Shown here: positions 1 through 62,441 of the stretch, one piece after another | Layout: every line of letters begins with the position of its first letter | How positions within the stretch are numbered: position 1 is the stretch's first letter | From: Gammaproteobacteria bacterium | GTDB lineage: Bacteria; Pseudomonadota; Gammaproteobacteria; CAJXQU01 | DNA length: 64,000 bases | Assembly: GCA_965238175.1 (NCBI GenBank) | Contig: CBDEGZ010000003.1 | Coordinates: 64,001-128,000 of the forward strand | Direction of reading: 5' to 3' | Program-made: the position numbers and the translations under genes | The notes under the pieces: model-generated | Databases searched by the model: none | What the model saw: only the letters and a program-made list of their open reading frames with translations | What the model was told of the DNA's origin: nothing

Positions 1-304
1 TAATCACCTGCACCTCCTTGTAACACCAACGAGTAAAGAGGAGTTGGCAAAATTTATACAATCGTTAGCCAATCGATATGTTCGATATTTTAATACAAAG
101 CATCAGCGAACAAATACTATCTGGAAAGGACATTTTAAATAATGAATCCGATTAAGACGAATATCATGAAAAACCTTAATCTGTTTAATAGGCTACCCGA
201 CTTCATGGTTGGATAATTGTTTTAAGACGTTTGCTATGATTAGCAAAATAGTGTCAATGTACCGATAAGAAAAAATCCATTTTTTCTTAATCTTAATTTA
301 GCTG

Positions 305-49291: not shown

Positions 49292-51574
49292 TTAAAGGCT
49301 ACTGTATTTTTCTCTTAATCGCTGACGAACAAGTTCAGCGATAGTGTTAAACATAAATGTTGCCATAAACAAGACTAATGCTGCCAGGAACAAGATTCGA
49401 TAGTGTGTACTGTCAACTTCCGACTCAGGCATTTCCACGGCAATATTTGCAGATAATGCTCGAAAACCTTGAAAGATATTGACGTCCATAATGGGCGTAT
49501 TACCTGTGGCCATTAAGACGATCATTGTCTCGCCAACTGCACGACCAAAACCGATCATTAATGCAGAGAAAATGCCCGGGCTGGCGGTTAACAAAACCAC
49601 ACGAATTAAGGTCTGCCAGCGCGTAGCACCTAGTGCTAATGAACCAACAGTAAGATGTTTCGGCACACTGAAAATCGCATCTTCACTGATAGAAAAAATA
49701 GTTGGAATTACTGCAAACCCCATAGCAATACCAACAACTAAGGAATTCCGTTGATCAAAATCTAGCCCGAGCGTATTAGCAACCCAGGCAGGCATGTCAT
49801 TATTGAAAAAGGTTGCTTCAATTGGGTGACTTAGGCTCATGGCAATTAAGCTGGAAATAATGACAACGGGTATCAATAAAGCAGCTTCCCAGCCATCGGA
49901 TATATTGTGGCGTATACGTGTTGGTAATTTTGTCCAGAAAAATGCAGCTAATAACACCGATGACGGGACTAATATGAAGATCAAAAACACACCGGGAAGA
50001 TTCTTTTCTACCAGTGGTGCTAACCATAAACCAGCAAGGAAGCCTAAAATGACAGTGGGTAATGCCTCCATGATCTCAATGCTAGGTTTGACCACATTAC
50101 GCATTTTTGGCGTCATAAAATAAGCGGTAAAGATCGCGCCAAAAATTGCTAAAGGAACCGCAAATAACATTGCATAAAAAGCAGCTTTTAAGGTACCGAA
50201 GGTAAGTGGAGTTAAGCTAAATTTCGGTTCAAAGTCATTACTTGCAGAAGAAGACTGCCAGATATATTCGGGCTGTTGTCTACTTTCATACCAAACTTTG
50301 CCCCAAAGTGAATTCCAGGATACCTCAGGATGTTCATTGTCGATATGCATGAAATGCATATCACCTGTAGTTGTCGTTGCCAGCAAAGCATTCGCTCTGG
50401 GAGAAACTGTCAGCAGGCGAATGTTTTGATCAAAAATTGATTTCACCAACAGTTTTCGATGAGCTGTTGTATGGAAAAGCCCGATGTTTCCACCCTCATC
50501 TGCCACAGCAAAACCTTTGCGAGAATGTTCTGGTGCAATTATTGAAATTGGTTTGTTACTTAATTTGAAGTCACGAACTTTTTTTATTTTGTACTTGTTA
50601 TTGTTATCTCTGACCGGAAACCATTGGCTTATTTTACCGTTAGAATCTCCGATTAAGATTGAAATTCCACCGGCCAGAAACTCAATTGCAGTTACTTTTT
50701 CATTTTCACTTACGACACCAATACGATCTATTAAGACTGGTTTATCTATATCTGATATTGAGAAGTAGATTAGATCGTTTTTGTCGGTAATGATGTATAG
50801 CTCATCTTGATCAACATCTAGTCTAAGCCACGTTATGTTTTCCCCCGGCAAATCAATCTCAGTTTGTTCTTTTTCGACCTCAACATCATTACCCAACATA
50901 GATTCTTCGGTGGTAAAACGCGTAAGTAATAGCCGATTATCTGCTGTGACTGCTACCACCGTGGTTTGGTCTTCACTATTTTGTGCAGATAATTTGACGA
51001 TAGATCGACCTTTCTCATCTAGCTCGACAGGATCTTCACCTAACGGAAATTCCAATTCTGGGGATATCTTACGCACATCGTTCGGAAAACTGATCTGGTA
51101 GACGTGTTTTGCGAGCAGCATAGAACCATTTTCTAGTCCTAACGCGATGATAGCTTGTGAAGGATCACCTTTGCTGACGGAGGTAATTTTTTGGGTTGCT
51201 TCTTGCAACGCAAGAAGGTTTTTTTGATTAAGAACAGTACCTTCTTTTAATGTAAAAAATGTAGCTTTACCCTGTAGATCAACACTCAAACCAATTTCAG
51301 CGTATTCCTCCGTCGTAATCAGTTCTGGCACATTGCCGAGAATTTCTGATGTATTGAGTTGGGATTTGGTTTCTATTTCTGCGCCTTTAAATAGAGGGAC
51401 GACAACATAGAACAAATAAAAGAAGATCAAGAGTATTGCGATAATAACGCTGATACCACCAAAGCCCATGGCCTGCCTAAACAAACGGTCTTTGAGATCT
51501 CGCCAACGTTGGCGTCGCAGGGTCGCAGGGTCATTACGTTTAGGCAAAATATGATCGGTGGAAGTATCAGTCAT
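49292..51574 (-). CDS. pstC: Phosphate ABC permease PstC, long form with large periplasmic domain (system 1)
   Basis: WQSSSASNDFEPKFSL, KPSIEIMEALP, GRAVGETMIV. Confidence 0.93.
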   Translation of the reverse strand: MTDTSTDHILPKRNDPATLRRQRWRDLKDRLFRQAMGFGGISVIIAILLIFFYLFYVVVPLFKGAEIETKSQLNTSEILGNVPELITTEEYAEIGLSVDLQGKATFFTLKEGTVLNQKNLLALQEATQKITSVSKGDPSQAIIALGLENGSMLLAKHVYQISFPNDVRKISPELEFPLGEDPVELDEKGRSIVKLSAQNSEDQTTVVAVTADNRLLLTRFTTEESMLGNDVEVEKEQTEIDLPGENITWLRLDVDQDELYIITDKNDLIYFSISDIDKPVLIDRIGVVSENEKVTAIEFLAGGISILIGDSNGKISQWFPVRDNNNKYKIKKVRDFKLSNKPISIIAPEHSRKGFAVADEGGNIGLFHTTAHRKLLVKSIFDQNIRLLTVSPRANALLATTTTGDMHFMHIDNEHPEVSWNSLWGKVWYESRQQPEYIWQSSSASNDFEPKFSLTPLTFGTLKAAFYAMLFAVPLAIFGAIFTAYFMTPKMRNVVKPSIEIMEALPTVILGFLAGLWLAPLVEKNLPGVFLIFILVPSSVLLAAFFWTKLPTRIRHNISDGWEAALLIPVVIISSLIAMSLSHPIEATFFNNDMPAWVANTLGLDFDQRNSLVVGIAMGFAVIPTIFSISEDAIFSVPKHLTVGSLALGATRWQTLIRVVLLTASPGIFSALMIGFGRAVGETMIVLMATGNTPIMDVNIFQGFRALSANIAVEMPESEVDSTHYRILFLAALVLFMATFMFNTIAELVRQRLREKYSSL

Positions 51575-51609
51575 AATATTTACTGGATGTTACACGAACT
51601 CTCACTTTT

Positions 51610-51634
51610 AAAAAAAGCCCCGCAAAAGCGGGGC
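51610..51634 (-). terminator. Hairpin/terminator between pstS and pstC
   Basis: GCCCCGC-AAAA-GCGGGGC with adjacent A-run. Confidence 0.8.
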
Positions 51635-51669
51635 AGATACTAAATTACACTAATTAACTAGAACTGCTT

Positions 51670-52644
51670 TTACTGACTTAATTCAAACAACGCTTCTTCT
51701 GCCACGACTGCAGGTAGAGGAATATATCCATCTTTGACAACCACTTCCTGACCTACTTTTGACAATATCATTTTAACAAATTCAAGCTCCAATGGTGAAA
51801 GTGATTTATTAGGATGTTTGTTTACGTAAACATATAAAAAACGACCTAAAGGATACTTACCCGTTACGGCATTTTCTGGCGTAGCATCGATAAATTCCCC
51901 ATCTGGTTTTTTAGTCAAAGGAACTGCACGCACACCCGAAGTTTTATAACCAATACCAGAATAACCGATACCGTTGACCGATTTAGTAATGCCTTGTACG
52001 ACAGAAGCAGAACCTGGTTGCTCATTCACAGAATCTTTATAGTCACCTTTGCAGAGTGCTTTCTTTTTGAAGTAACCATAAGTACCAGAAACGGAATTTC
52101 GTCCATATAGTTGGATAGGACGGTTAGCCCATTCACCCGTTAAACCTACGTCACCCCAGTTTGTAATGTCTGCATCGTGTTTACATTTTCGAGTTGCAGA
52201 AAAGATCGCATCCACTTGTGGAATAGATAAGCCTTTTACAGGGTTATCTTTGTTAACATAGACTGCAAGAGCATCGATTGCGACTGGAACAGCGGTAGCT
52301 TTATAGCCATGTTTTGCTTCAAAAGCCGCTGCTTCTTTGTCTTTCATTTTACGACTCATAGGGCCGAAATTTGAAGTACCTTCTGTTAGTGCAGGTGGTG
52401 CTGTTGAAGAACCAGCCGCTTGAATTTGGATATTAACGTTAGGGTATAAACGTTTAAATTCTTCACCCCAGAGCGTCATTAAGTTTGCTAGCGTATCAGA
52501 ACCGACACTAGAAACATTGCCCGATACACCACTCGCTTTTTGGTAATCCGGAAGTCCCGAATCCGCTTCAGCATAAGATCCCACCGGGATCATGAACGCA
52601 GCGGCAATTGCACTTGCTCTAAAGAAATTTTTATTGAAAAACAT
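51670..52644 (-). CDS. pstS: Phosphate-binding protein PstS (system 1)
   Basis: [29 protein letters not shown]. Confidence 0.95.
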
Positions 52645-52701
52645 TTTATTACCTTCCTCAGGATGACTGTTAATGAATCACCGACAGTATGATCAGGACA
52701 G

Positions 52702-52741
52702 GTAACAAGTTTGTTACAGAAATATTACAGCTTGATGACAA
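52702..52741 (-). promoter_or_regulatory. Four-unit Pho box upstream of pstS1
   Basis: TTGTCAT-caag-CTGTAAT-attt-CTGTAAC-aaac-TTGTTAC. Confidence 0.88.
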
Positions 52742-52882
52742 GCTGTGTTTTTATAATTAAAGGAAATTATTTAGGCCTATAGAACAGTTAGTTAACCTGA
52801 TGTGATGGTCTCCTCCCCCTAACGGCATCTAGGTGCCATGATTGAACTGACATACACACAATCAAAAGAGGAGAAGACCAAA

Positions 52883-53896
52883 ATGAAGACTACAACAATC
52901 GGGTTAGACATAGCAAAAAACGTATTTCATGCTGTCTGCTGTAATCAACAAGGGCGTATAATCAAAAAGAAAATGTTAAAGCGAGCGCAGGTACTCTCCT
53001 TTTTTCAATCTCAACCTCCTTGTTTAGTCGCAATAGAATCTTGTGCAACGTCACAGTATTGGGCCCGAGCGATACAACAACAGGGACATCAGGTGAAATT
53101 ACTACCACCTCAGCATGTTAACGCATTTCTAATCGGCAATAAGAATGATTATAACGATGCCTTGGCCATCGCCGTTGCTGCGAAACAACCTCATTTAAAA
53201 AGTGTGGGCATTAAATCAGTTGAGCAACAAGACAACCAGGCACAACATAAAGCAAGAGACTTAGCGGTCAGACAAAGAACCGCATTATGTAACCAAATGA
53301 GAGCGCTTGTTGCAGAATATGGCATTAGCCTTCGTCCCGGCCTAAATACCCTACGTCAATCTATCCCGTTGCTATTAAGTGATGAGAACGAACGGTTGTC
53401 CGTTACTTTCAAAAGGATACTGCGCCAGCTAAAGGAACAATGGCAATCACTTGATGCCTGTATTGCGACATTTGACCAATTGATCATTCAATCGGCAAAA
53501 AACAATGCGATTTGCCAACGCTTACAAACTATTCCAGGGTTTGGGCCGATGGTCTCGAGCGCGTATTTTAATGAAGTGGGAAACGGCGCTCATTATCACA
53601 AAGGGCGCGATGTGTCCGCCTCATTAGGACTTGTTCCACGACAGTACAGTAGTGGTGGTAAAGAGGTGCTACTGGGGATCAGTAAACGCGGCAATAAATA
53701 CCTTCGTTGTTTGTTAATTCTAGGCGCGAAGGCCGTGGTATCAAGAGCCAAAACGAAAGGCGATAAACTGAGTCAATGGATTAATCGTTTAGTTGAGACG
53801 CGGGGGCATAATCGAGCGTGTGTGGCGTATGCCAACAAAATGGCAAGAATGGCCTGGGCTATAACGGTTTCTGGTGATGACTACTCACCGGCCTAA
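52883..53896 (+). CDS. IS110-family DEDD transposase/recombinase
   Basis: IGLDIAK, E(SC), KNDYNDA, IPGFG, GLVPRQYSSGG, GNKYLR. Confidence 0.96.
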   Translation: MKTTTIGLDIAKNVFHAVCCNQQGRIIKKKMLKRAQVLSFFQSQPPCLVAIESCATSQYWARAIQQQGHQVKLLPPQHVNAFLIGNKNDYNDALAIAVAAKQPHLKSVGIKSVEQQDNQAQHKARDLAVRQRTALCNQMRALVAEYGISLRPGLNTLRQSIPLLLSDENERLSVTFKRILRQLKEQWQSLDACIATFDQLIIQSAKNNAICQRLQTIPGFGPMVSSAYFNEVGNGAHYHKGRDVSASLGLVPRQYSSGGKEVLLGISKRGNKYLRCLLILGAKAVVSRAKTKGDKLSQWINRLVETRGHNRACVAYANKMARMAWAITVSGDDYSPA

Positions 53897-54126
53897 ATAG
53901 AGAGAACAAATCATTTCAACGAATTGCGAAGGTAAAACTAAAGATGGCATAACAGGTCAAACCAGCCTATTGAAAACCTGTCGAGCTCAGGGGTAACTAA
54001 TACCGATAACCTGATAAGGAAAATAGGCGCGTAATACATCCAGGTCAGAAGTTGAAAACTTCATTGAAGGCCGTATATATGACAGCAATCCTGTCCCTGT
54101 TATCTGAATGTTTTATCTTGCAATAC
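53897..54126 (+). ncRNA. Putative bridge/seekRNA of IS copy 1
   Basis: Stem GCCTATT/AATAGGC encloses CGAGCTCAG and TAACCTGA target matches; second loop has ACATC and ATATATGA donor matches; RNA ends not determined. Confidence 0.78.
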
Positions 54127-54152
54127 GGGAGGAGACCATATATGAGATCGGT

Positions 54153-55052
54153 TTAAGCCACGGTTGCTAATGCCCGTTTTAAGTAATTAAATTCATCGCC
54201 AGACAAGTTCAAAGACGGCTTATTCTCTTTCAGACAATAAGCGATCAATCCACCGATAAGATTAAGCATAAAACCATGTACAGAGCGGTGTCTGGAATGT
54301 TCTATCTGAGTAATGTTCTTCAACTGGTCATTAATGGTTTCAATAATAAAACGTCTGCTCAGCATGGCTCTGTCCCAGAGCGATGTAGCTTTTGCCTTCA
54401 TGTTTTTTCGAACATTTGTCACCAACTCCACGCCTTTATCAAACAATTCGCTCGATAAGGCTTGGCTGATATAGCCCTTATCCCCGTAAAGTTTGCCACT
54501 CATCGCCTTGCACAGCTCGGGAACAGGCTGACGGTCATCGATATTTCCCGGGGTGATTTTGGCTGCCAGGATATCCCCCTGATGATTGGTGATAAGGTGT
54601 AACTTGAAACCATAAAACCAACCCATTGTGCCTCGACCTCGCTGGGCGATGTCTTTGAAAACACGGTGGCGTGGAATACGGAGGTTGTGGCACACTTTTA
54701 AGGCGGTTGAATCAACAAACGCAACACCTGTGGGTTTCCCTTTAAGATAAGAAAAGTAGCTACATAAAGGAACGAGCACTGTCGGCATCACCTCCAGAAA
54801 CCGCGTGTAGCTTAGCATCTGTGGAAAATCCTCGGCATAGAATTGAGCGATAAACCCTTTGTAGTAGTTCTTGAAATCGCGATGGTTGGAGTGATGAAAC
54901 AGGATGATGATAGTCATGATTTCGCTGGCTTGCATTCGCCCAACTCGACGGCGTTTGCGTTGCCCATCGGTCAGTAATTGTTGTTCCCACAACGGTATGA
55001 AGTGCTGACAGAAGTCATCGACATCACAAAAGATTTCAACTAGTTTATCCAT
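54153..55052 (-). CDS. IS982-family DDE transposase
   Basis: IFCDVDDFC, SEIMTI, FVDST, GWFYGFKLHL, GDKGYIS, IETINDQLKN. Confidence 0.95.
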   Translation of the reverse strand: MDKLVEIFCDVDDFCQHFIPLWEQQLLTDGQRKRRRVGRMQASEIMTIIILFHHSNHRDFKNYYKGFIAQFYAEDFPQMLSYTRFLEVMPTVLVPLCSYFSYLKGKPTGVAFVDSTALKVCHNLRIPRHRVFKDIAQRGRGTMGWFYGFKLHLITNHQGDILAAKITPGNIDDRQPVPELCKAMSGKLYGDKGYISQALSSELFDKGVELVTNVRKNMKAKATSLWDRAMLSRRFIIETINDQLKNITQIEHSRHRSVHGFMLNLIGGLIAYCLKENKPSLNLSGDEFNYLKRALATVA

Positions 55053-55143
55053 TGGCTTGTTCTCCTTTTTTTTCAATTGTTTGGTCACAATTGATCTGAT
55101 CGGGGGACAAGCCGTTAGTTCATTTCCTTAAGCCGAGTTGGGG

Positions 55144-55863
55144 TTAGTTACGATATTTTTCTTTGTCTTCCAGTCTTCTTTGGTGTCGCAGATTAACTCC
55201 GTGGATAAGATAGATCACATATTCGGCGATATTTCCTGCATGTGCTCCTAGCCTTTCAAGTGATTTCAACATTAACGTGATGTTGATCGAATGTCCGAGG
55301 TTTCTCGCATCTTCAAGTACAAAGGTTGTTAAATGCCTTAAAGATGATTGAAATTCAGCATCAAGCTCCTGATCAGCATTGAGTAAAGATTTTGCTAATT
55401 TTGAATCTAATTGATCAAAAGCAGTTAGTGCGGTTTCTAATAATTCCAATGACAATCTGCCCATTACAGAAATATCACGCAATTGGTTTTTTGCAGGCTT
55501 CGGTTGATTAGCATCTGAAAGTGACTCAATAATGTGTGCGATTCGAGCTGCTTCGTCACCAATTCTTTCAAGATCGACAACGATCCTGGAGAATGCCATC
55601 GTAATCCGCAGATCTTTGGAGACTGGACCACGTTTGTTAATGAGATCAATTATCTTATTATCAATAGCAACTTCCATGGAATCGACTTCCGGCTCTCTTT
55701 CCAAAACCAGTTTGGCCGCTTTTTCATCCTGTTCGAGCAATGCTTGAAGCGCGAGTCGACTTTGATCTAAAGCCAAGCCGCCCATTTCAAGTATTTGTAA
55801 GTGCAGATTATTCAAGTCACCATCAAAGCGCTGATCGGCATGTCCTTCTAGTGGTTGATTCAT
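55144..55863 (-). CDS. phoU: PhoU (copy 2)
   Basis: MGGL, DLR, DLERIGD, LERLG...NIAEYVIY. Confidence 0.92.
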   Translation of the reverse strand: MNQPLEGHADQRFDGDLNNLHLQILEMGGLALDQSRLALQALLEQDEKAAKLVLEREPEVDSMEVAIDNKIIDLINKRGPVSKDLRITMAFSRIVVDLERIGDEAARIAHIIESLSDANQPKPAKNQLRDISVMGRLSLELLETALTAFDQLDSKLAKSLLNADQELDAEFQSSLRHLTTFVLEDARNLGHSINITLMLKSLERLGAHAGNIAEYVIYLIHGVNLRHQRRLEDKEKYRN

Positions 55864-55881
55864 CGTATTTCTCCGTCACAG

Positions 55882-56775
55882 TTAGCCGAATCGGCCGGTA
55901 ATATAATCTTCCGTCAGTTGATGTATTGGTGCATTGAAAATTTGATTAGTTTCACCTACCTCAATCAGGTCACCCAAATGGAAGTAAGCGGTTCGATCCG
56001 AAACTCGCGCAGCTTGTTGCATAGAGTGTGTGACAATACAGATTGAGTAATTTTGGCGTAATTCAAGCATCAGCTCTTCAATAGCTGCAGTTGAAATTGG
56101 ATCTAAGGCTGAACAAGGCTCGTCCATTAAAATTACTTCTGGCTCAACAGAGATAGTCCGTGCAATGCACAGGCGCTGCTGTTGGCCGCCGGACAATCCG
56201 GTGCCAGGTTGATCCAGTCGATCTTTAACCTCTTCCCAAAGACCCGCTTTTTTTAAACTCGTTTCGACTATTTCATCAAGATCATCTTTGTGGCTGGCAA
56301 GACCGTGGATTTTTGGACCAAAAGTGATGTTCTCGCGGATTGATTTGGGAAATGGATTTGGTTTTTGAAAGACCATGCCCACCGTTGCACGTAAAGGAAC
56401 AACATCAATCTCATCACCATTAATATCTAGTCCGTCCATTTCTATCTTGCCGGTAACTCGACAGATATTAATGGTGTCATTCATTCGATTAAGACAGCGG
56501 AGGAAGGTTGATTTACCACAACCAGAAGGTCCAATCATCGCAAGAATCTCGGATTTTCCTACATCGAGATTCAGGTTTTTGATCGCCTGTTTTTCCCCGT
56601 AATAGACATTGATATCTGTACATATCATTCGTGGATCGTATACACGAATCTCACCGACAGTACGTCGGTCTTCTCGGCTTATTTTTGGTTGATTAGAATT
56701 GATCTCGACTGAAGTTCTAACGTGTTGCTCAATCACATCACTTGTTTGTTCATTTGTTAATGTTCCTAATTTCAT
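55882..56775 (-). CDS. pstB: Phosphate ABC transporter ATPase (system 2)
   Basis: [28 protein letters not shown]; ATG at 56775 has an RBS. Confidence 0.96.
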
Positions 56776-56803
56776 AACGGTATTCCTCAATAAATTATTT
56801 TGT

Positions 56804-58126
56804 CTACCAGCGACGTTCAAATTTTCTTCTTAGAAGTACGGCCAAAGCATTCATTAAGATCAGAAATCCTAATAAAACCATAATCGCGGCGGATGTTTTT
56901 TCAGTAAAAGCGCGTTCTGGACTGTCAGCCCATAGATAAATTTGAACTGGCAAAACGGTTGATGGATCAAAAGCGCCGCCTGGAATATCAACAATAAACG
57001 CAACCATACCGATCATCAAAAGTGGTGCAGATTCTCCTAAAGCTTGCGCCATACCAATGATAGTGCCTGTCAACATGCCCGGCATTGCTAATGGTAAAAC
57101 ATGATAGAAAATGGCTTGCAAAGGCGAGGCACCAACACCCAAAGCTGCTTCTTTGATTGAAGGTGGAACTGATTTCAGTGCTGCACGGCTGGAAATAATA
57201 ATGGTGGGTAGTGTCATTAATGTCAGTACTAATCCACCAACAAAAGGAGCCGATCTTGGAAGACCGAAGAAATTGATAAATACAGCCAGCCCTAACAAAC
57301 CGAAAACAATAGAAGGCACCGCTGCCAGGTTGTTTATGTTGACCTCTATAATGTCGGTTAGTCGGTTTTTGGCTGCAAACTCTTCTAAATAAATCGCCGC
57401 TGCAACGCCAATCGGAAACGACAAAAGCAATGTCACTAACAAGGTATAAATAGAGCCAACAATAGCTCCTCGAATACCTGCAAGTTCCGGATTGCGTGAA
57501 TCTCCATTAGTAAAAAAGATCGTATTAAAACGCTTTTCTATTCGATCTTGTTCTACCAATTTATCGACCCAGCCAATCTGATTGTCTTTGACGCGCCGAT
57601 CATCTTCGGGTAATAAGCGATCAATATGCCCTTTAATCAACATATCGATCTCATCATCAGCAGGTACCCAGAGATCAAATTTCTGATCAATTAAACCAGA
57701 ATCATTTTTGATCATTCTCTCAAGTTGAAAGGCAGCGTCTTGACTAACCAGACCATTCAATTTCCGTTTGTCACGGCGCCCATTAACATTAGGAAACATT
57801 TTACGCAAACTGGATTTTACAATACCTGCGTAGTTTGCTGAGGCGATTGCTTCTGCTGTTCGATTAGAGTTGGCCAATTCAGACTCCGTAAGATCAATTT
57901 CAATGCTGATGTAAGTCTGCTGAAAAGCACCATAGCCTTTACTAATAATACTGGTGAAAAGTAACACCAGAAAAAGTACACCTAAGAAAATTGCAGACTT
58001 CCCGAGAAACTGGAATCGTTTTTCAGCACGTTTTCGTTTCTTCATACCAGCATTCACCACCTCCATGGGGGTTTTTCTTGTGGGTACGTCGTTATCTTCT
58101 ATCGAAGAATTAATTTGATTATTCAT
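56804..58126 (-). CDS. pstA: Phosphate ABC permease PstA (system 2, DUF3333-type)
   Basis: [34 protein letters not shown]. Confidence 0.95.
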
Positions 58127-59489
58127 ATTGTTCCCGGTATTTACGCACGATGTGTAGTGCTATAACGTTGAGAATGAGTGTGATCACAAAAAGTGCTAAA
58201 CCCAATGCGAATGCCGCGAGAGTCTTAGCGCTATCGAATTCTTGATCACCCGTTAATAAGGTCACGATTTGAACGGTTACCGTTGTAACAGCGTCGAGTG
58301 GATTAGCCGTCAGGTTTGCAGCAAGCCCGGCTGCCATAACCACGATCATCGTTTCACCAATGGCTCGTGATACAGCAAGTAAAATGCCCCCAACAATTCC
58401 TGGCAATGCGGCTGGGAAAATGACCTTGCGAATGGTTTCAGACTTAGTAGCACCTAATCCATACGCACCATCTCGCATGGCTTGAGGAACTGCGTTTATC
58501 ACATCATCTGATAAGGATGAAACTAATGGGATAATCATAATACCCATCACTAAACCTGCAGCTAATGCACTTTCTGAGGCGACATCAAAACCTATATTTG
58601 TACCCAAGTTCCGAATGAAAGGTGCTACGACCAGTGCTGCAAAAAAACCATATACAACAGTTGGTATGCCTGCCAGAATTTCAAGCAATGGTTTTGTAAT
58701 TGTTCGAACTCTTTCTGATGCATATTCGGAAAGATAAATCGCAGACATTAAGCCAATAGGAACGGCAACGAACATTGCAATGAACGAGATCAAAAGCGTG
58801 CCGGTAAAAAGAGGTATCGCGCCGAAGCTACCACTTGAACCAACCTGATCTTCACGTATTGCCGTTTGAGGACTCCACTCTAGACCAAAGAGAAAGTCAC
58901 TGGCAGGGATCATGTTAAAAAAACGTAAAGACTCAAATAAAACCGAAAGTACGATTCCTAACGTAGTTAAAATGGCAATGCTGGAACAAAGGATCAAAAA
59001 TGCTTTTACTAACCATTCGACAACATTCCTTGCTCGAAATTGCGGGTGTATTTTTCTTAGTGCAACAAGACTTAACACTATTGCACCAGAAAGTGCTAGT
59101 ACGGTAAGAATAACGTGACTGGTACTTTGTAGACTCTTATAACGGTCTGCAGCTACCTGTAAGCTTGTATTAACCTCACCGGAAGTGACATTTCCCGCCA
59201 CAAGATTTTTAATATCGTTCACAACAAGGTTAAGATTTTCTGAATTGGCCGTTGGTAATTCTGAAACAACAATATTGGTGATAATGCCAGGCTCAAATAT
59301 CATCCATCCCGCAGCTAGTAAGAGTGCCGGCAAACCGCACCACACTGCGGTGAAAAAACCGTAGTAATTGGGTAAAGAGTGTAAATTGCGAACCTTTCCT
59401 TGCACCACGCTTAGGGCACGACTACGACCTAGAAAAAAGGCACAGGAACTCAGTAGTAATAGAATGATCGCAAGAATTGAAACTTGCAT
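58119..59489 (-). CDS. pstC: Phosphate ABC permease PstC (system 2, DUF3708-type)
   Basis: LHSLPNYYG, WSPQTAIREDQVG, SRAIGETMIV. Confidence 0.95.
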   Translation of the reverse strand: MQVSILAIILLLLSSCAFFLGRSRALSVVQGKVRNLHSLPNYYGFFTAVWCGLPALLLAAGWMIFEPGIITNIVVSELPTANSENLNLVVNDIKNLVAGNVTSGEVNTSLQVAADRYKSLQSTSHVILTVLALSGAIVLSLVALRKIHPQFRARNVVEWLVKAFLILCSSIAILTTLGIVLSVLFESLRFFNMIPASDFLFGLEWSPQTAIREDQVGSSGSFGAIPLFTGTLLISFIAMFVAVPIGLMSAIYLSEYASERVRTITKPLLEILAGIPTVVYGFFAALVVAPFIRNLGTNIGFDVASESALAAGLVMGIMIIPLVSSLSDDVINAVPQAMRDGAYGLGATKSETIRKVIFPAALPGIVGGILLAVSRAIGETMIVVMAAGLAANLTANPLDAVTTVTVQIVTLLTGDQEFDSAKTLAAFALGLALFVITLILNVIALHIVRKYREQYE

Positions 59490-59786
59490 TTGTGTCTCCT
59501 CCCGAATGGGAATTTGCAGCTTTTAATTTCGTTCATAAGCTACTTAAAATTATGTTGTTTTACTTAACCTGAACTCGGGATAAGAAATATCCATCCAGCC
59601 GATTTCTTTTAGCGCCTCTGTGCGTTGGAGTTGTTTCCAATAGCCCGCTATTGCTACGCAACTCCGCCTTAATAGCCACTAAAAGAAGTCCACTGGACAA
59701 AGCAGTCACAGCGATTTCATCTAACTCATTGTCTTTTAATGTTTTTATGGCCATTCTTATCCCGAGTTCATATATGGTCTCCTCCC

Positions 59787-60016
59787 GTATTGCAAGATAA
59801 AACATTCAGATAACAGGGACAGGATTGCTGTCATATATACGGCCTTCAATGAAGTTTTCAACTTCTGACCTGGATGTATTACGCGCCTATTTTCCTTATC
59901 AGGTTATCGGTATTAGTTACCCCTGAGCTCGACAGGTTTTCAATAGGCTGGTTTGACCTGTTATGCCATCTTTAGTTTTACCTTCGCAATTCGTTGAAAT
60001 GATTTGTTCTCTCTAT
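59787..60016 (-). ncRNA. Putative bridge/seekRNA of IS copy 2
   Basis: Reverse complement of 53897-54126. Confidence 0.78.
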
Positions 60017-61030
60017 TTAGGCCGGTGAGTAGTCATCACCAGAAACCGTTATAGCCCAGGCCATTCTTGCCATTTTGTTGGCATACGCCACACACGCTCG
60101 ATTATGCCCCCGCGTCTCAACTAAACGATTAATCCATTGACTCAGTTTATCGCCTTTCGTTTTGGCTCTTGATACCACGGCCTTCGCGCCTAGAATTAAC
60201 AAACAACGAAGGTATTTATTGCCGCGTTTACTGATCCCCAGTAGCACCTCTTTACCACCACTACTGTACTGTCGTGGAACAAGTCCTAATGAGGCGGACA
60301 CATCGCGCCCTTTGTGATAATGAGCGCCGTTTCCCACTTCATTAAAATACGCGCTCGAGACCATCGGCCCAAACCCTGGAATAGTTTGTAAGCGTTGGCA
60401 AATCGCATTGTTTTTTGCCGATTGAATGATCAATTGGTCAAATGTCGCAATACAGGCATCAAGTGATTGCCATTGTTCCTTTAGCTGGCGCAGTATCCTT
60501 TTGAAAGTAACGGACAACCGTTCGTTCTCATCACTTAATAGCAACGGGATAGATTGACGTAGGGTATTTAGGCCGGGACGAAGGCTAATGCCATATTCTG
60601 CAACAAGCGCTCTCATTTGGTTACATAATGCGGTTCTTTGTCTGACCGCTAAGTCTCTTGCTTTATGTTGTGCCTGGTTGTCTTGTTGCTCAACTGATTT
60701 AATGCCCACACTTTTTAAATGAGGTTGTTTCGCAGCAACGGCGATGGCCAAGGCATCGTTATAATCATTCTTATTGCCGATTAGAAATGCGTTAACATGC
60801 TGAGGTGGTAGTAATTTCACCTGATGTCCCTGTTGTTGTATCGCTCGGGCCCAATACTGTGACGTTGCACAAGATTCTATTGCGACTAAACAAGGAGGTT
60901 GAGATTGAAAAAAGGAGAGTACCTGCGCTCGCTTTAACATTTTCTTTTTGATTATACGCCCTTGTTGATTACAGCAGACAGCATGAAATACGTTTTTTGC
61001 TATGTCTAACCCGATTGTTGTAGTCTTCAT
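60017..61030 (-). CDS. IS110-family DEDD transposase/recombinase
   Basis: Protein identical to 52883-53896. Confidence 0.96.
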   Translation of the reverse strand: MKTTTIGLDIAKNVFHAVCCNQQGRIIKKKMLKRAQVLSFFQSQPPCLVAIESCATSQYWARAIQQQGHQVKLLPPQHVNAFLIGNKNDYNDALAIAVAAKQPHLKSVGIKSVEQQDNQAQHKARDLAVRQRTALCNQMRALVAEYGISLRPGLNTLRQSIPLLLSDENERLSVTFKRILRQLKEQWQSLDACIATFDQLIIQSAKNNAICQRLQTIPGFGPMVSSAYFNEVGNGAHYHKGRDVSASLGLVPRQYSSGGKEVLLGISKRGNKYLRCLLILGAKAVVSRAKTKGDKLSQWINRLVETRGHNRACVAYANKMARMAWAITVSGDDYSPA

Positions 61031-61127
61031 TTTGGTCTTCTCCTCTTTTGATTGTGTGTATGTCAGTTCAATCATGGCACCTAGATGCCGTTAGGGGGAG
61101 GAGACCATCACATCAGGTTACTTAGAG

Positions 61128-61160
61128 AAAAAAGGGGGGAAATAAAATTCTTTCACCCCC
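61128..61160 (-). terminator. Hairpin/terminator downstream of pstS2
   Basis: A-run then GGGGGGAAA...TTTCACCCCC. Confidence 0.6.
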
Positions 61161-61225
61161 AAGACCGTTTCTCAATAAGAGGGAGTTATCTCCCTTCTTC
61201 AAACATCCTTGTTTTCTATTTCTAC

Positions 61226-62320
61226 TTAAAGAGATAAGGGTTTTAGCTCTTTTGCATCAGATGTGAACTGTGCACGCTCTGTTTGCGGCATGGGGATAAG
61301 GCCACGATCAGAAAGATATCCATCGTCGCCATAAGCCTTATCGCTTGTGAACTCAGAGAGATACTCATCCATACCTGGAATTACGCCAACATGTGCTTTT
61401 TTTACATAGAAGAAAAGAGGACGTGAAATTGGATAAGTGCCGTCAGAAATAGTTTCGAACTTAGGTTCAATGCCGTTGACGACTGAGCCACGAACTTTGT
61501 CGAGATTTTCATCAAGGAAACTAAATCCAAAGACACCTAATGCTTTTGGATTTGAATCCAATTTTTGCACGATCAGGTTATCGTTCTCGCCGGCTTCTAC
61601 ATATGCACCATCTTCACGAATTGTATGGCAAATACTTTTGTATTTAGATTTCAATTTTTTAGCAAGTACCCTGTCGCCGCCTTTTTTCGCAGCTTTTGAA
61701 GCCTTTTTGATCTGTTTTATCCAGTCAAACGTTTTACAACCACCTTCCATTGCTAGTTCAGCAAAGGCATCACGAGTGCCTGATGTAGGTGGAGGACCTA
61801 ACACTTCGATATCAATTGCTGGCAATTTCGAATTTACTTCATTCCATTTCTTATAAGGATTTACAACTAATTTTTCACCACCTGCAGGTTCAGGAATTTC
61901 TTTTGCCAGAGCCAGGAAAATATCACGAGTGGTTAGTTCCATTGGAACGCCTTTCTTTGAATTAGCAACTGCGATTCCGTCATAACCAATCTTAACTTCG
62001 ATAATGTCTTTTACACCGTTTTTTTGACACATATCGAATTCAGATTTTTTAATCCTGCGTGATGCATTTGTGATATCAGGATGTTCAACACCAACACCAG
62101 CACAAAATAATTTCAAACCACCACCAGAACCTGTTGATTCAACTTTTGGTGTTTTGAAATTGGTGCTTTTTCCAAATTGTTCAGCAACAACTGTTGCAAA
62201 AGGGTAGACCGTTGAAGAGCCAACGATACTAATATAATCACGAGCAGCGATAGCATAGGCTGCACCTGCAACAACGGCTGTTGCCAGTACACTGCTTAGT
62301 AAAACACTTTTTTTAAACAT
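61226..62320 (-). CDS. pstS: Phosphate-binding protein PstS (system 2)
   Basis: IVGSSTVYPF, ESTGSGGG, GPPPTSGTRDAF, YPISRPLFFY. Confidence 0.95.
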   Translation of the reverse strand: MFKKSVLLSSVLATAVVAGAAYAIAARDYISIVGSSTVYPFATVVAEQFGKSTNFKTPKVESTGSGGGLKLFCAGVGVEHPDITNASRRIKKSEFDMCQKNGVKDIIEVKIGYDGIAVANSKKGVPMELTTRDIFLALAKEIPEPAGGEKLVVNPYKKWNEVNSKLPAIDIEVLGPPPTSGTRDAFAELAMEGGCKTFDWIKQIKKASKAAKKGGDRVLAKKLKSKYKSICHTIREDGAYVEAGENDNLIVQKLDSNPKALGVFGFSFLDENLDKVRGSVVNGIEPKFETISDGTYPISRPLFFYVKKAHVGVIPGMDEYLSEFTSDKAYGDDGYLSDRGLIPMPQTERAQFTSDAKELKPLSL

Positions 62321-62441
62321 GTCATACTCCTCTGTCAGGGGCAATAAAAATTTTTAGATAGAGGAGACGTCAATAAGTAGTTATTGTTTATATCACAGTA
62401 GCAATTGTGTTCGTCTCCTACACACACCCTCGCACATGGGC

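Follow-up and report, generated by a model that had tools for sequence, protein, structure and literature searches.

An IS1111-group insertion sequence with a predicted two-loop seek/bridge RNA and target sites in the terminal inverted repeats of other mobile elements

Insertion sequences (IS) of the IS1111 group are already covered by the seekRNA and bridge-RNA papers (PMC11187229; PMC11208160), and the mechanism considered here is not new. Elements of this group typically have a 7-bp left and a 3-bp right extension and a transposase of normally 330–350 amino acids (aa). In their seekRNA the segment complementary to the top strand lies 5' of the segment complementary to the bottom strand, with an overlap at the insertion point, an order that is the reverse of IS110-type RNAs (PMC11187229). 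According to the IS621 report, a bridge RNA is predicted in the right end of 93.0% of IS1111 elements (PMC11208160). Here we describe an element of this group within a window of 64,000 nucleotides (the whole stretch of DNA analysed) from a gammaproteobacterium. The non-coding region (NCR) that follows its transposase gene (tnp) is predicted, at a probability of about 0.88, to encode a seek/bridge RNA with two guide-bearing loops, and the element appears to be active.

The closest likeness, drawn by description, is to ISEc11, ISPa11, ISKpn4 and ISPst6 (Siddiquee et al. 2024, PMC11187229). Like these, the window element combines a DEDD transposase of about 340 aa with a subterminal inverted repeat (sTIR) and, after tnp, a long NCR; it shares with them the guide order, the overlap at the insertion point and natural retargeting, and the likeness would extend to the 7-bp left and 3-bp right extensions if, as assumed here, one copy of the apparent duplication is owned by the IS. 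It differs in its target, the TAACC^TGAGCTCG-like ends of IS982-family terminal inverted repeats (TIR), known here from sequence alone. As in the bridge RNA of IS621 (Durrant et al. 2024, PMC11208160; complexes 8wt6–8wt9), two loops would each pair with both strands of target or donor, core included. Unlike IS621, the window element has its predicted RNA at the 3' rather than the 5' end, a reversed guide order, a long sTIR, a TG/CG rather than a CT core, and donor nucleotides that appear to lie in a multi-loop closed by an upstream-box helix. The only solved relatives found by sequence are the recombinases of IS621 and ISCro4, with a marginal similarity confined to the C-terminal domain (E = 2.3e-4). 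ISPpu9 of Pseudomonas putida, an IS110-family element in repeated palindromic sequences, is reported to have a small RNA gene downstream of its transposase (PMC12288879).

The element and its guide-bearing non-coding region

The transposase carries the IS110-family DEDD pair of Pfam domains, PF01548 (E = 3.6e-16) and PF02371 (E = 6.4e-20), and matches NCBIfam NF033542 with 302.9 bits (cut-off 140), a model that NCBI already names 'IS110 family RNA-guided transposase'. Its translation contains GLVPRQYSSG, which fits the IS1111 C-terminal motif GL-P----S(T)G, and its 337 aa are an ordinary IS1111 size (PMC11187229), so that the word 'compact', used in an earlier note on this DNA, means no more than the family's usual size. 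The two sTIRs match perfectly over 13 bp (IS1111-group range 11–13 bp), and the NCR downstream of tnp measures 230 nt, versus the 65 nt that separate the left sTIR from the ATG at 52883. Following the seekRNA authors' treatment of ISEc11 (PMC11187229), one flanking TGA copy is given to the IS; if that copy does belong to it, TGATGTG and ATA fit the 7/3 rule. By the sequence-level definition of the group, the element is an IS1111-group IS. It may already be named or catalogued; a megablast search of the whole element against plasmids returned no match. All features are collected in Table 1.

Table 1. Coordinates of the IS1111-group element, its predicted RNA segments and its target sites in the window
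Feature	Position	Strand	Remark
Left target half-site TAACC	52793..52797	+	outermost bases of the targeted IS982-type TIR
Whole IS1111-group insertion sequence, 1,345 bp	52798..54142	+	one TGA copy assigned to the left end (7-bp/3-bp extension rule)
Left terminal extension TGATGTG, 7 bp	52798..52804	+	starts with shared TG(A); region complementary to the 5' donor guide
Left subterminal inverted repeat ATGGTCTCCTCCC	52805..52817	+	same sTIR in L033–L038 and at most further relatives' loci
DEDD transposase gene, 337 aa	52883..53896	+	ATG preceded by GAGGAG; upstream in-frame ATG at 52838
3' non-coding region (NCR), encodes predicted seek/bridge RNA	53897..54126	+	between the transposase stop codon and the right sTIR
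Upstream GATGG box (family consensus GATGR)	53943..53947	+	complementary to the 5' donor guide; alignment columns 129–133 with 242–246
Target-binding stem-loop (predicted)	53965..54028	+	outer stem 53965–53971/54022–54028, distal hairpin 53992–54004; minimum free energy (MFE) fold and covariation
Right target guide (RTG) CGAGCUCAGG	53982..53991	+	complementary to top strand, target -2..+8 (CC^TGAGCTCG)
Left target guide (LTG) UAACCUGAU	54007..54015	+	same as top-strand TAACC^TGA and one further base from the left IS end; expected partner is the bottom strand
5' donor guide (RDG) UACAUC	54035..54040	+	complementary to GATGT(G) of the left IS end
Donor-loop distal hairpin	54043..54072	+	GGUC...GGCC closing an inner GAAGUU/AACUUC stem; helices 7 and 8
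3' donor guide (LDG) AUAUAUGA	54075..54082	+	equals sTIR edge, right extension ATA and TGA
TTGCAA, expected -35 box of the circle promoter	54118..54123	+	CTTGC-AA conserved in alignment A1
Right subterminal inverted repeat GGGAGGAGACCAT	54127..54139	+	partner of ATGGTCTCCTCCC
Right terminal extension ATA, 3 bp	54140..54142	+	ATA in 61/66 relatives
Right target half-site TGAGATCG	54143..54150	+	continues the TIR of the adjacent IS982-family element
Second identical copy	59771..61115	-	at TAACC^TGAACTCG in one TIR of a ~210-bp miniature element

Within the NCR, the outer stem GCCTATT (53965–53971)/AATAGGC (54022–54028) encloses CGAGCTCAG (53982–53990), a distal hairpin formed by GGTA (53992–53995) and TACC (54001–54004), and TAACCTGA (54007–54014), all at the places where the earlier note had read them. 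Specifically, TAACCTGA equals the left half of both targets, both window copies sitting at TAACC^TGA, while the reverse complement of CGAGCTCAG lies one base from each right half, TGAGATCG for the copy at 52798–54142 and TGAACTCG for the minus-strand copy at 59771–61115. In the second loop, ACATC (54036–54040) and ATATATGA (54075–54082) are likewise in place; the latter was described as the IS right end plus core, and the LDG matches these fully, with the family columns following. The guide order of the window element is the published IS1111 order and the reverse of that of IS110-type RNAs.

Chance matches were assessed with 100,000 mononucleotide shuffles of the 230-nt NCR. The left-half match TAACCTGA arises in 427 of these and a 9-mer with at most one mismatch to both right halves in 122; both target-guide matches occur together in 2. 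The donor match ATATATGA arises in 1,171 shuffles, and ACATC, at only 5 nt, is not significant alone and draws its support from the family comparison.

For that comparison, homologues were collected from 400 genomes of the same class, 62 of which have one at E <= 1e-40 (best identity 56%), and from a further 80 loci of a named genome collection (identity up to 78%); a protein search found relatives at 75–83% identity in marine metagenomes, Shewanella, Colwellia and Pseudoalteromonas. The sTIR was located, the 7/3 rule applied and the flanks read for 21, then for 56 further elements. Eight of the 29 homologue loci went unused, namely L039, L042, L045, L049 and L060, which have no inverted repeat, and L054, L056 and L059, which have unrelated repeats only. 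Of the 80 loci, 63 have an sTIR, and the 56 retained combine an NCR of less than 330 nt with available flanks. Collapsing duplicate guide pairs reduced 77 to 66, and L057, having no right flank, was excluded from the target tests.

In an unguided search, the left flank and core of each element recur in its own NCR about 110–155 nt past the stop codon; in many NCRs the reverse complement of the right flank precedes this copy by about 25 nt. The 7-mer spanning -5..+2 is found in the element's own NCR in 8/19 cases, versus 6/338 for the NCRs of other elements. Covariation of guides and sites was then measured against 20,000 permutations of the element–site assignment, none of which reaches any observed guide–site match. 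On the target side, the LTG matches left flank -5..-1 at 86/105 positions versus 33.3 permuted in 21 elements, and at 291/330 versus 103.4 in the 66 distinct guide pairs; the RTG matches right flank +3..+8 at 69/126 versus 37.6 and at 286/396 versus 122.4 in the same two sets. On the donor side, in 22 elements, the LDG matches the right extension at 66/66 positions (55.8 permuted) and the first two bases of the right flank at 43/44 (29.4 permuted), and the RDG matches left extension 2..7 at 110/132 (91.8 permuted). Together with the features of the IS1111 group and the published guide order, guide columns that follow each element's own flanks support the RNA-guided recombinase proposed in the earlier note.

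The aligned NCRs of 22, then 78, related elements share a conserved, covarying RNA structure, which is what the earlier note had looked to RNA folding and covariation across homologous IS to provide. The MFE fold of 53897–54142 forms the outer stem and the inner GGTA/TACC hairpin. In the alignment A1, a MAFFT alignment of 22 NCRs, the 5' part of the scaffold consists, in order, of GAUUGCGAAG, GUGAUGRCA, ACAGGUCAGACC, the outer stem, GAAAACCUG and a variable 10-mer. The middle part continues with a small GGC/GCC hairpin, GA, a variable 5-mer followed by YGAU, AGG, the outer stem and GCGCG, and the 3' part with a UUCAUCGA-consensus segment (NYNAUY family-wide), a GGCC hairpin, AUAUAYG, CUUGCAA and the sTIR. 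RNAalifold on the aligned NCRs gives 30 consensus pairs, 21 of them with compensatory changes. These pairs are formed in 94.2% of cells, versus 27.8–44.8% when partners are slid by 1–3 columns, and the covariation score is 0.536 versus 0.05–0.125 for slid partners, a value reached by 0/500 shuffles. The GCCTATT/AATAGGC outer stem shows compensatory changes in 8/8 pairs, and the four proposed guide segments fall in four variable blocks of the alignment. For a small terminator-like hairpin at 54081–54095, conservation was not seen by eye in A1.

Across the family, the exchange core is best taken to be a YG dinucleotide. In 45/66 relatives the left extension and the right flank begin with the same two bases (TG 22, CG 21, TA 1, AG 1), and three bases are shared in only 12/66. 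The 'TGA core' of the earlier note is thus TG with an A that happens to coincide, the target of this element having A at +3. Past the core, the LTG follows the left IS end and not the empty target, at +3 and +4 in 56 and 57 of 66 versus 17 and 6, and these two positions hardly vary in the family. This extension onto the donor side resembles the handshake guides of IS621 (PMC13604230).

Insertion sites, retargeting and occupancy

The 3.35-Mb genome contains 24 full-length copies of the element, 1 copy cut by a contig end and 3 fragments. Among the full-length copies, 22 are identical to the window copy and 2 have one substitution each; these 24 near-identical copies point to recent activity. 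The orientation of insertion is constant: the left junction reads TAACC^TGA in 24/25 cases and AAACC^TGA in 1/25. Compared with the guide-implied TGAGCTCG, the right halves (n = 24) match at 7/8 positions in 10, 6/8 in 7, 5/8 in 5, 4/8 in 1 and 3/8 in 1, so that 17/24 agree at 6 or 7 of 8.

Most right flanks are TIRs of other mobile elements, and the IS shows a preference for the outer end of TIRs belonging to IS982-family elements and their miniature derivatives. The adjacent element, which spans 54146 to about 55140 and has a minus-strand open reading frame (ORF) at 54153–55088, belongs to the IS982 family (NF033520, 279 bits), and both of its ends start with TAACC: TAACC TGA GATCGGTTTAAG and TAACC CCA ACTCGGCTTAAG. 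The first of these ends has 3 copies in the genome; 2 are split by the IS1111-type element and the third is intact, reading TAACCCCAGATCGG. A miniature element of about 210 bp (window 59563–59775, minus strand) has TIRs TAACCTGAACTCGGGATAAGAA at both ends, one of which holds the second IS copy while the other, with the same 13-bp site, is empty. This TIR splitting probably immobilises the IS982-family and miniature elements, and it complicates annotation and assembly of an IS-rich genome. IS4321 and IS5075 are reportedly IS1111-type elements specialised for the TIR of a different mobile element, which they enter in a single orientation. Their hosts are said to be Tn3-family transposons, unlike the IS982-family elements and miniature derivatives found here. 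The target of IS4321 is mentioned in the seekRNA paper (PMC11187229).

The TAACC derives from the target and not from the IS, because uninterrupted TAACCTGA sites exist and empty sister repeats are altered in the left half or core. Specifically, uninterrupted TAACCTGA+ACTCGGGATAAG sites are present in the genome, as is intact TAACCTGAACTCGGGATAAG, and the unoccupied sister repeats, TAACCTAAAC, TAACCTTGAC and TAACCCCAGATCGG, differ exactly in the left half or core. A TAACCTGA+CAGTC site also lies inside an abundant IS481-like element (roughly 70 copies, counted from a listing), about 60 bp from its right end; it is occupied in 1 of roughly 70 (L009), and this near-absence of insertions fits its 0/5 match to the right guide.

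The opposite idea, that TAACC travels with the IS, was rejected on the strength of the uninterrupted TAACCTGA targets. It had arisen from IS481-like copies, 13 of which are uninterrupted and lack TAACCTGA beside their left end while 3 have TAACCTGA, the IS and then AC. It is further opposed by one IS481-like right end that is followed by TATGAAC+TCGGGATAAG (C3 minus strand 728), the 7-bp duplication expected if the IS481-like element had inserted later at the junction of IS right end and TIR.

An empty site in sister species was sought with the left flank of copy L010 in 30 other genomes, with 0/30 matching. In the contigs of three DNA runs from one sample, which cannot show rare forms, no joint and hence no circle or empty site was found; there the element forms a 1,352–1,353-bp repeat contig at about 20x the depth of its flanks.

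Natural retargeting is evident among relatives that share the scaffold and have 68–77% transposase identity. In L063, from a Colwellia metagenome-assembled genome (MAG; 77% identity), the right guide is the exact complement of TGAGATCG and the insertion site is TAACC^TGAGATCG; L064 of Shewanella frigidimarina (76%) has the right guide for TGAACTCG; and in L062, from a Halioglobus MAG (77%), both guides differ and the insertion site is AGATC^TGAGGTTA. The right guide of the window element corresponds to TGAGCTCG, one change from each of TGAGATCG and TGAACTCG. With the exact guides present in L063 and L064, the reading of a guide intermediate between two TIR variants, as proposed earlier, holds, and the right guide is a compromise between the two.

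Occupancy of TAACCTGA sites climbs with the number of right-guide matches at +4..+8. At 4/5 matches 9 sites are occupied and 3 empty, at 3/5 the counts are 7 and 9, at 2/5 they are 5 and 18, at 1/5 they are 1 and 55, and at 0/5 they are 1 and 106. Insertion efficiency would be expected to follow the guide match across TAACCTGAGCTCG, TAACCTGAGATCG, TAACCTGAACTCG and the poor natural site TAACCTGACAGTC.

The census provides an in vivo specificity profile in which 24/25 insertions keep the left half and core, the right half can carry 1 to 5 mismatches of 8, and sites with more mismatches are less often occupied. The value of the locus lies in an unusually legible natural case of RNA-guided transposition, with a natural specificity census and a family alignment. 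The alignment of 78 elements yields a conserved scaffold in which four guide segments can be exchanged, and it records cases of natural retargeting; it is useful for the development of IS1111-type recombinases, which are less characterised than IS621.

Proposed mechanism and competing explanations

For RNA production and binding, the circle, promoter activity and the exact point of exchange, we infer the following course. By analogy with ISEc11 and IS621, the element would excise as a circle, with a predicted junction of CCATATA followed by TGATGTGATGG, that is, GGAGACCATATA joined to TGATGTGATGGTCTCC. The abutted ends would create a promoter consisting of TTGCAA, 17 nt and TATGAT, with the joint after TA, which would transcribe the transposase gene and the NCR. 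In the linear copy, 0 plus-strand promoter-like sites were found across 52700–54250, hence no internal RNA promoter. The NCR RNA would then bind the 337-aa DEDD transposase, and its target loop would pair with both target strands. The partners of the second loop would be the IS ends once joined: UACAUC would pair to GATGTG at the left end and AUAUAUGA to the complement of ATATA+TGA at the right end. Strand exchange would take place at the shared TG(A).

Several observations weigh against a seek/bridge RNA with two guiding loops. The fold energy of the single sequence beats that of its shuffles by a modest margin only (z = -2.60 over 246 nt; z = -0.88 over 161 nt), and an Rfam scan of 52000–55500 at E <= 10 gave 7 weak matches to unrelated small nucleolar RNA, cis-regulatory and small RNA models, all below their gathering cut-offs and none inside the NCR. 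The permutation counts overstate independence, relatives sharing descent; the signal persists among 16 representatives with dissimilar targets. Similarly, occupied and empty sites are mostly members of repeat families, and the occupancy gradient does not consist of independent events. The sole perfect two-guide target in the genome, CTTAACCTGAGCTCGGGG at C3:393936, is unoccupied; it is the other arm of a palindrome with 13-bp arms whose first arm holds an IS copy (L023), 15 bp away. Insertions also occur at sites with 0/5 (L009) and 1/5 (L010) matches in the variable right half, and because of these, right-half pairing is a preference and not a requirement. On the donor side, the RDG has only 5 Watson-Crick pairs and a possible G-U pair with the left end, and it places a C opposite the core T where close relatives have G. 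Moreover, at positions 1–2 its pairing with the upstream box equals or exceeds that with the left end: position 2 pairs with the box in 49/54 combinations versus 33/54 for the left end.

An elaboration of the two-loop RNA is doubtful: the compromise right guide, one mismatch from each of two IS982-type TIR families, would have been selected, and the GATGR box would act as an anti-guide switch on the donor guide. If so, the compromise guide would let one element parasitise two diverged TIR families, and the anti-guide could gate recognition of the donor ends and thereby whether the element excises or inserts, or else could gate how long seekRNA is converted into the short form.

An improbable explanation confines guiding to the first loop. 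A short seekRNA of about 80 nt would select the target, the protein would recognise the IS ends via the sTIRs, and the matches of the second loop would be scaffold, with ACATC serving as a helix strand with the GATGR box and ATATATGA conserved for another role. The helix between box and RDG (columns 129–133 with 242–246) indeed has compensatory changes in 3/5 pairs, the preference for the box at position 2 points the same way, and an 82-nt short seekRNA of ISEc11 alone supported transposition (PMC11187229); the extensions, moreover, vary little (ATA 61/66) and offer few independent covariation events. Guiding by the first loop alone is opposed by RDG position 6, which is complementary to the left end in 53/54 combinations versus 44/54 for the box, by the window element and L035, whose RDG segments match the DNA left end and break the box helix, and by the LDG columns, which follow the rare right extensions ACA, AGA and GTA (66/66). 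It is also opposed by the placement of donor-complementary nucleotides in a multi-loop in many IS1111 orthologues, as reported by Durrant et al. (PMC11208160).

The pairing of ACATC with GATGT, as proposed in the earlier note, is therefore retained in part: the segment is complementary to the left end but also forms a helix with the upstream GATGR box, and as a donor guide it is likely but not exclusive. Both pairings, with left-end DNA and with the upstream box, may be real, and such a dual role would fit the multi-loop remark on IS1111 orthologues (PMC11208160).

A separate observation concerns the box itself. The conserved GUGAUGRCA box (53943–53947; A1 columns 126–136), which precedes the target loop, has a sequence complementary to that of the 5' donor guide, and the two covary even at positions that the IS end does not follow. 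The box might serve to close a multi-loop or, alternatively, as an anti-guide.

It is very unlikely that the matches act as DNA without an RNA guide, for example as protein-binding or decoy sites. DNA identity and RNA complementarity are inseparable when only sequence is compared, but the segments lie in unpaired strands of helices kept by compensatory changes, which is an RNA signature, and one guide is a complement and the other an identity, as in proven seekRNAs and bridge RNAs (PMC11187229; PMC11208160). Chance similarity in an AT-rich NCR, to which the individually weak ACATC and ATATATGA might be ascribed, is scarcely credible and unsupported in the tests, given the 2 joint target-guide matches per 100,000 shuffles and the alignment columns that match the relatives' own flanks beyond all 20,000 permutations.

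Neighbouring elements and minor observations

The IS481-like element (C3, e.g. 128294–129520) is about 1.2 kb long, has ends TGTAG...CTACA and produces 7-bp duplications fitting NNTNANC; its family was judged by eye on the translated C terminus. For one subtype, roughly 70 right and 16 left ends were counted. At L004, L008 and L019 (C3:2867327; 2280060 minus; 946613), an IS copy is followed by AC and then by an IS481-like left end. Insertion of the IS481-like element at the right junction of the IS1111-type element would thus have occurred three times.

Diverged fragments of the same or a related IS1111-type element, with 72–91% identity, lie at C3:2357905–2358383 (L026), 1154711–1154798 (L027) and 2897425–2897503 (L028), and point to older decayed copies. 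At C3:1393269–1393344 (L029/L030), two IS left ends of about 45 bp stand head to head in a perfect palindrome flanked by TAACC and GGTTA, which looks like the remnant of two inverted copies or a fold-back deletion.

Within the window, at 49292–62344, both IS copies, the IS982-family element and the miniature element occupy intergenic gaps of a minus-strand ORF cluster that, by eye, resembles phosphate-transport and phoU genes.

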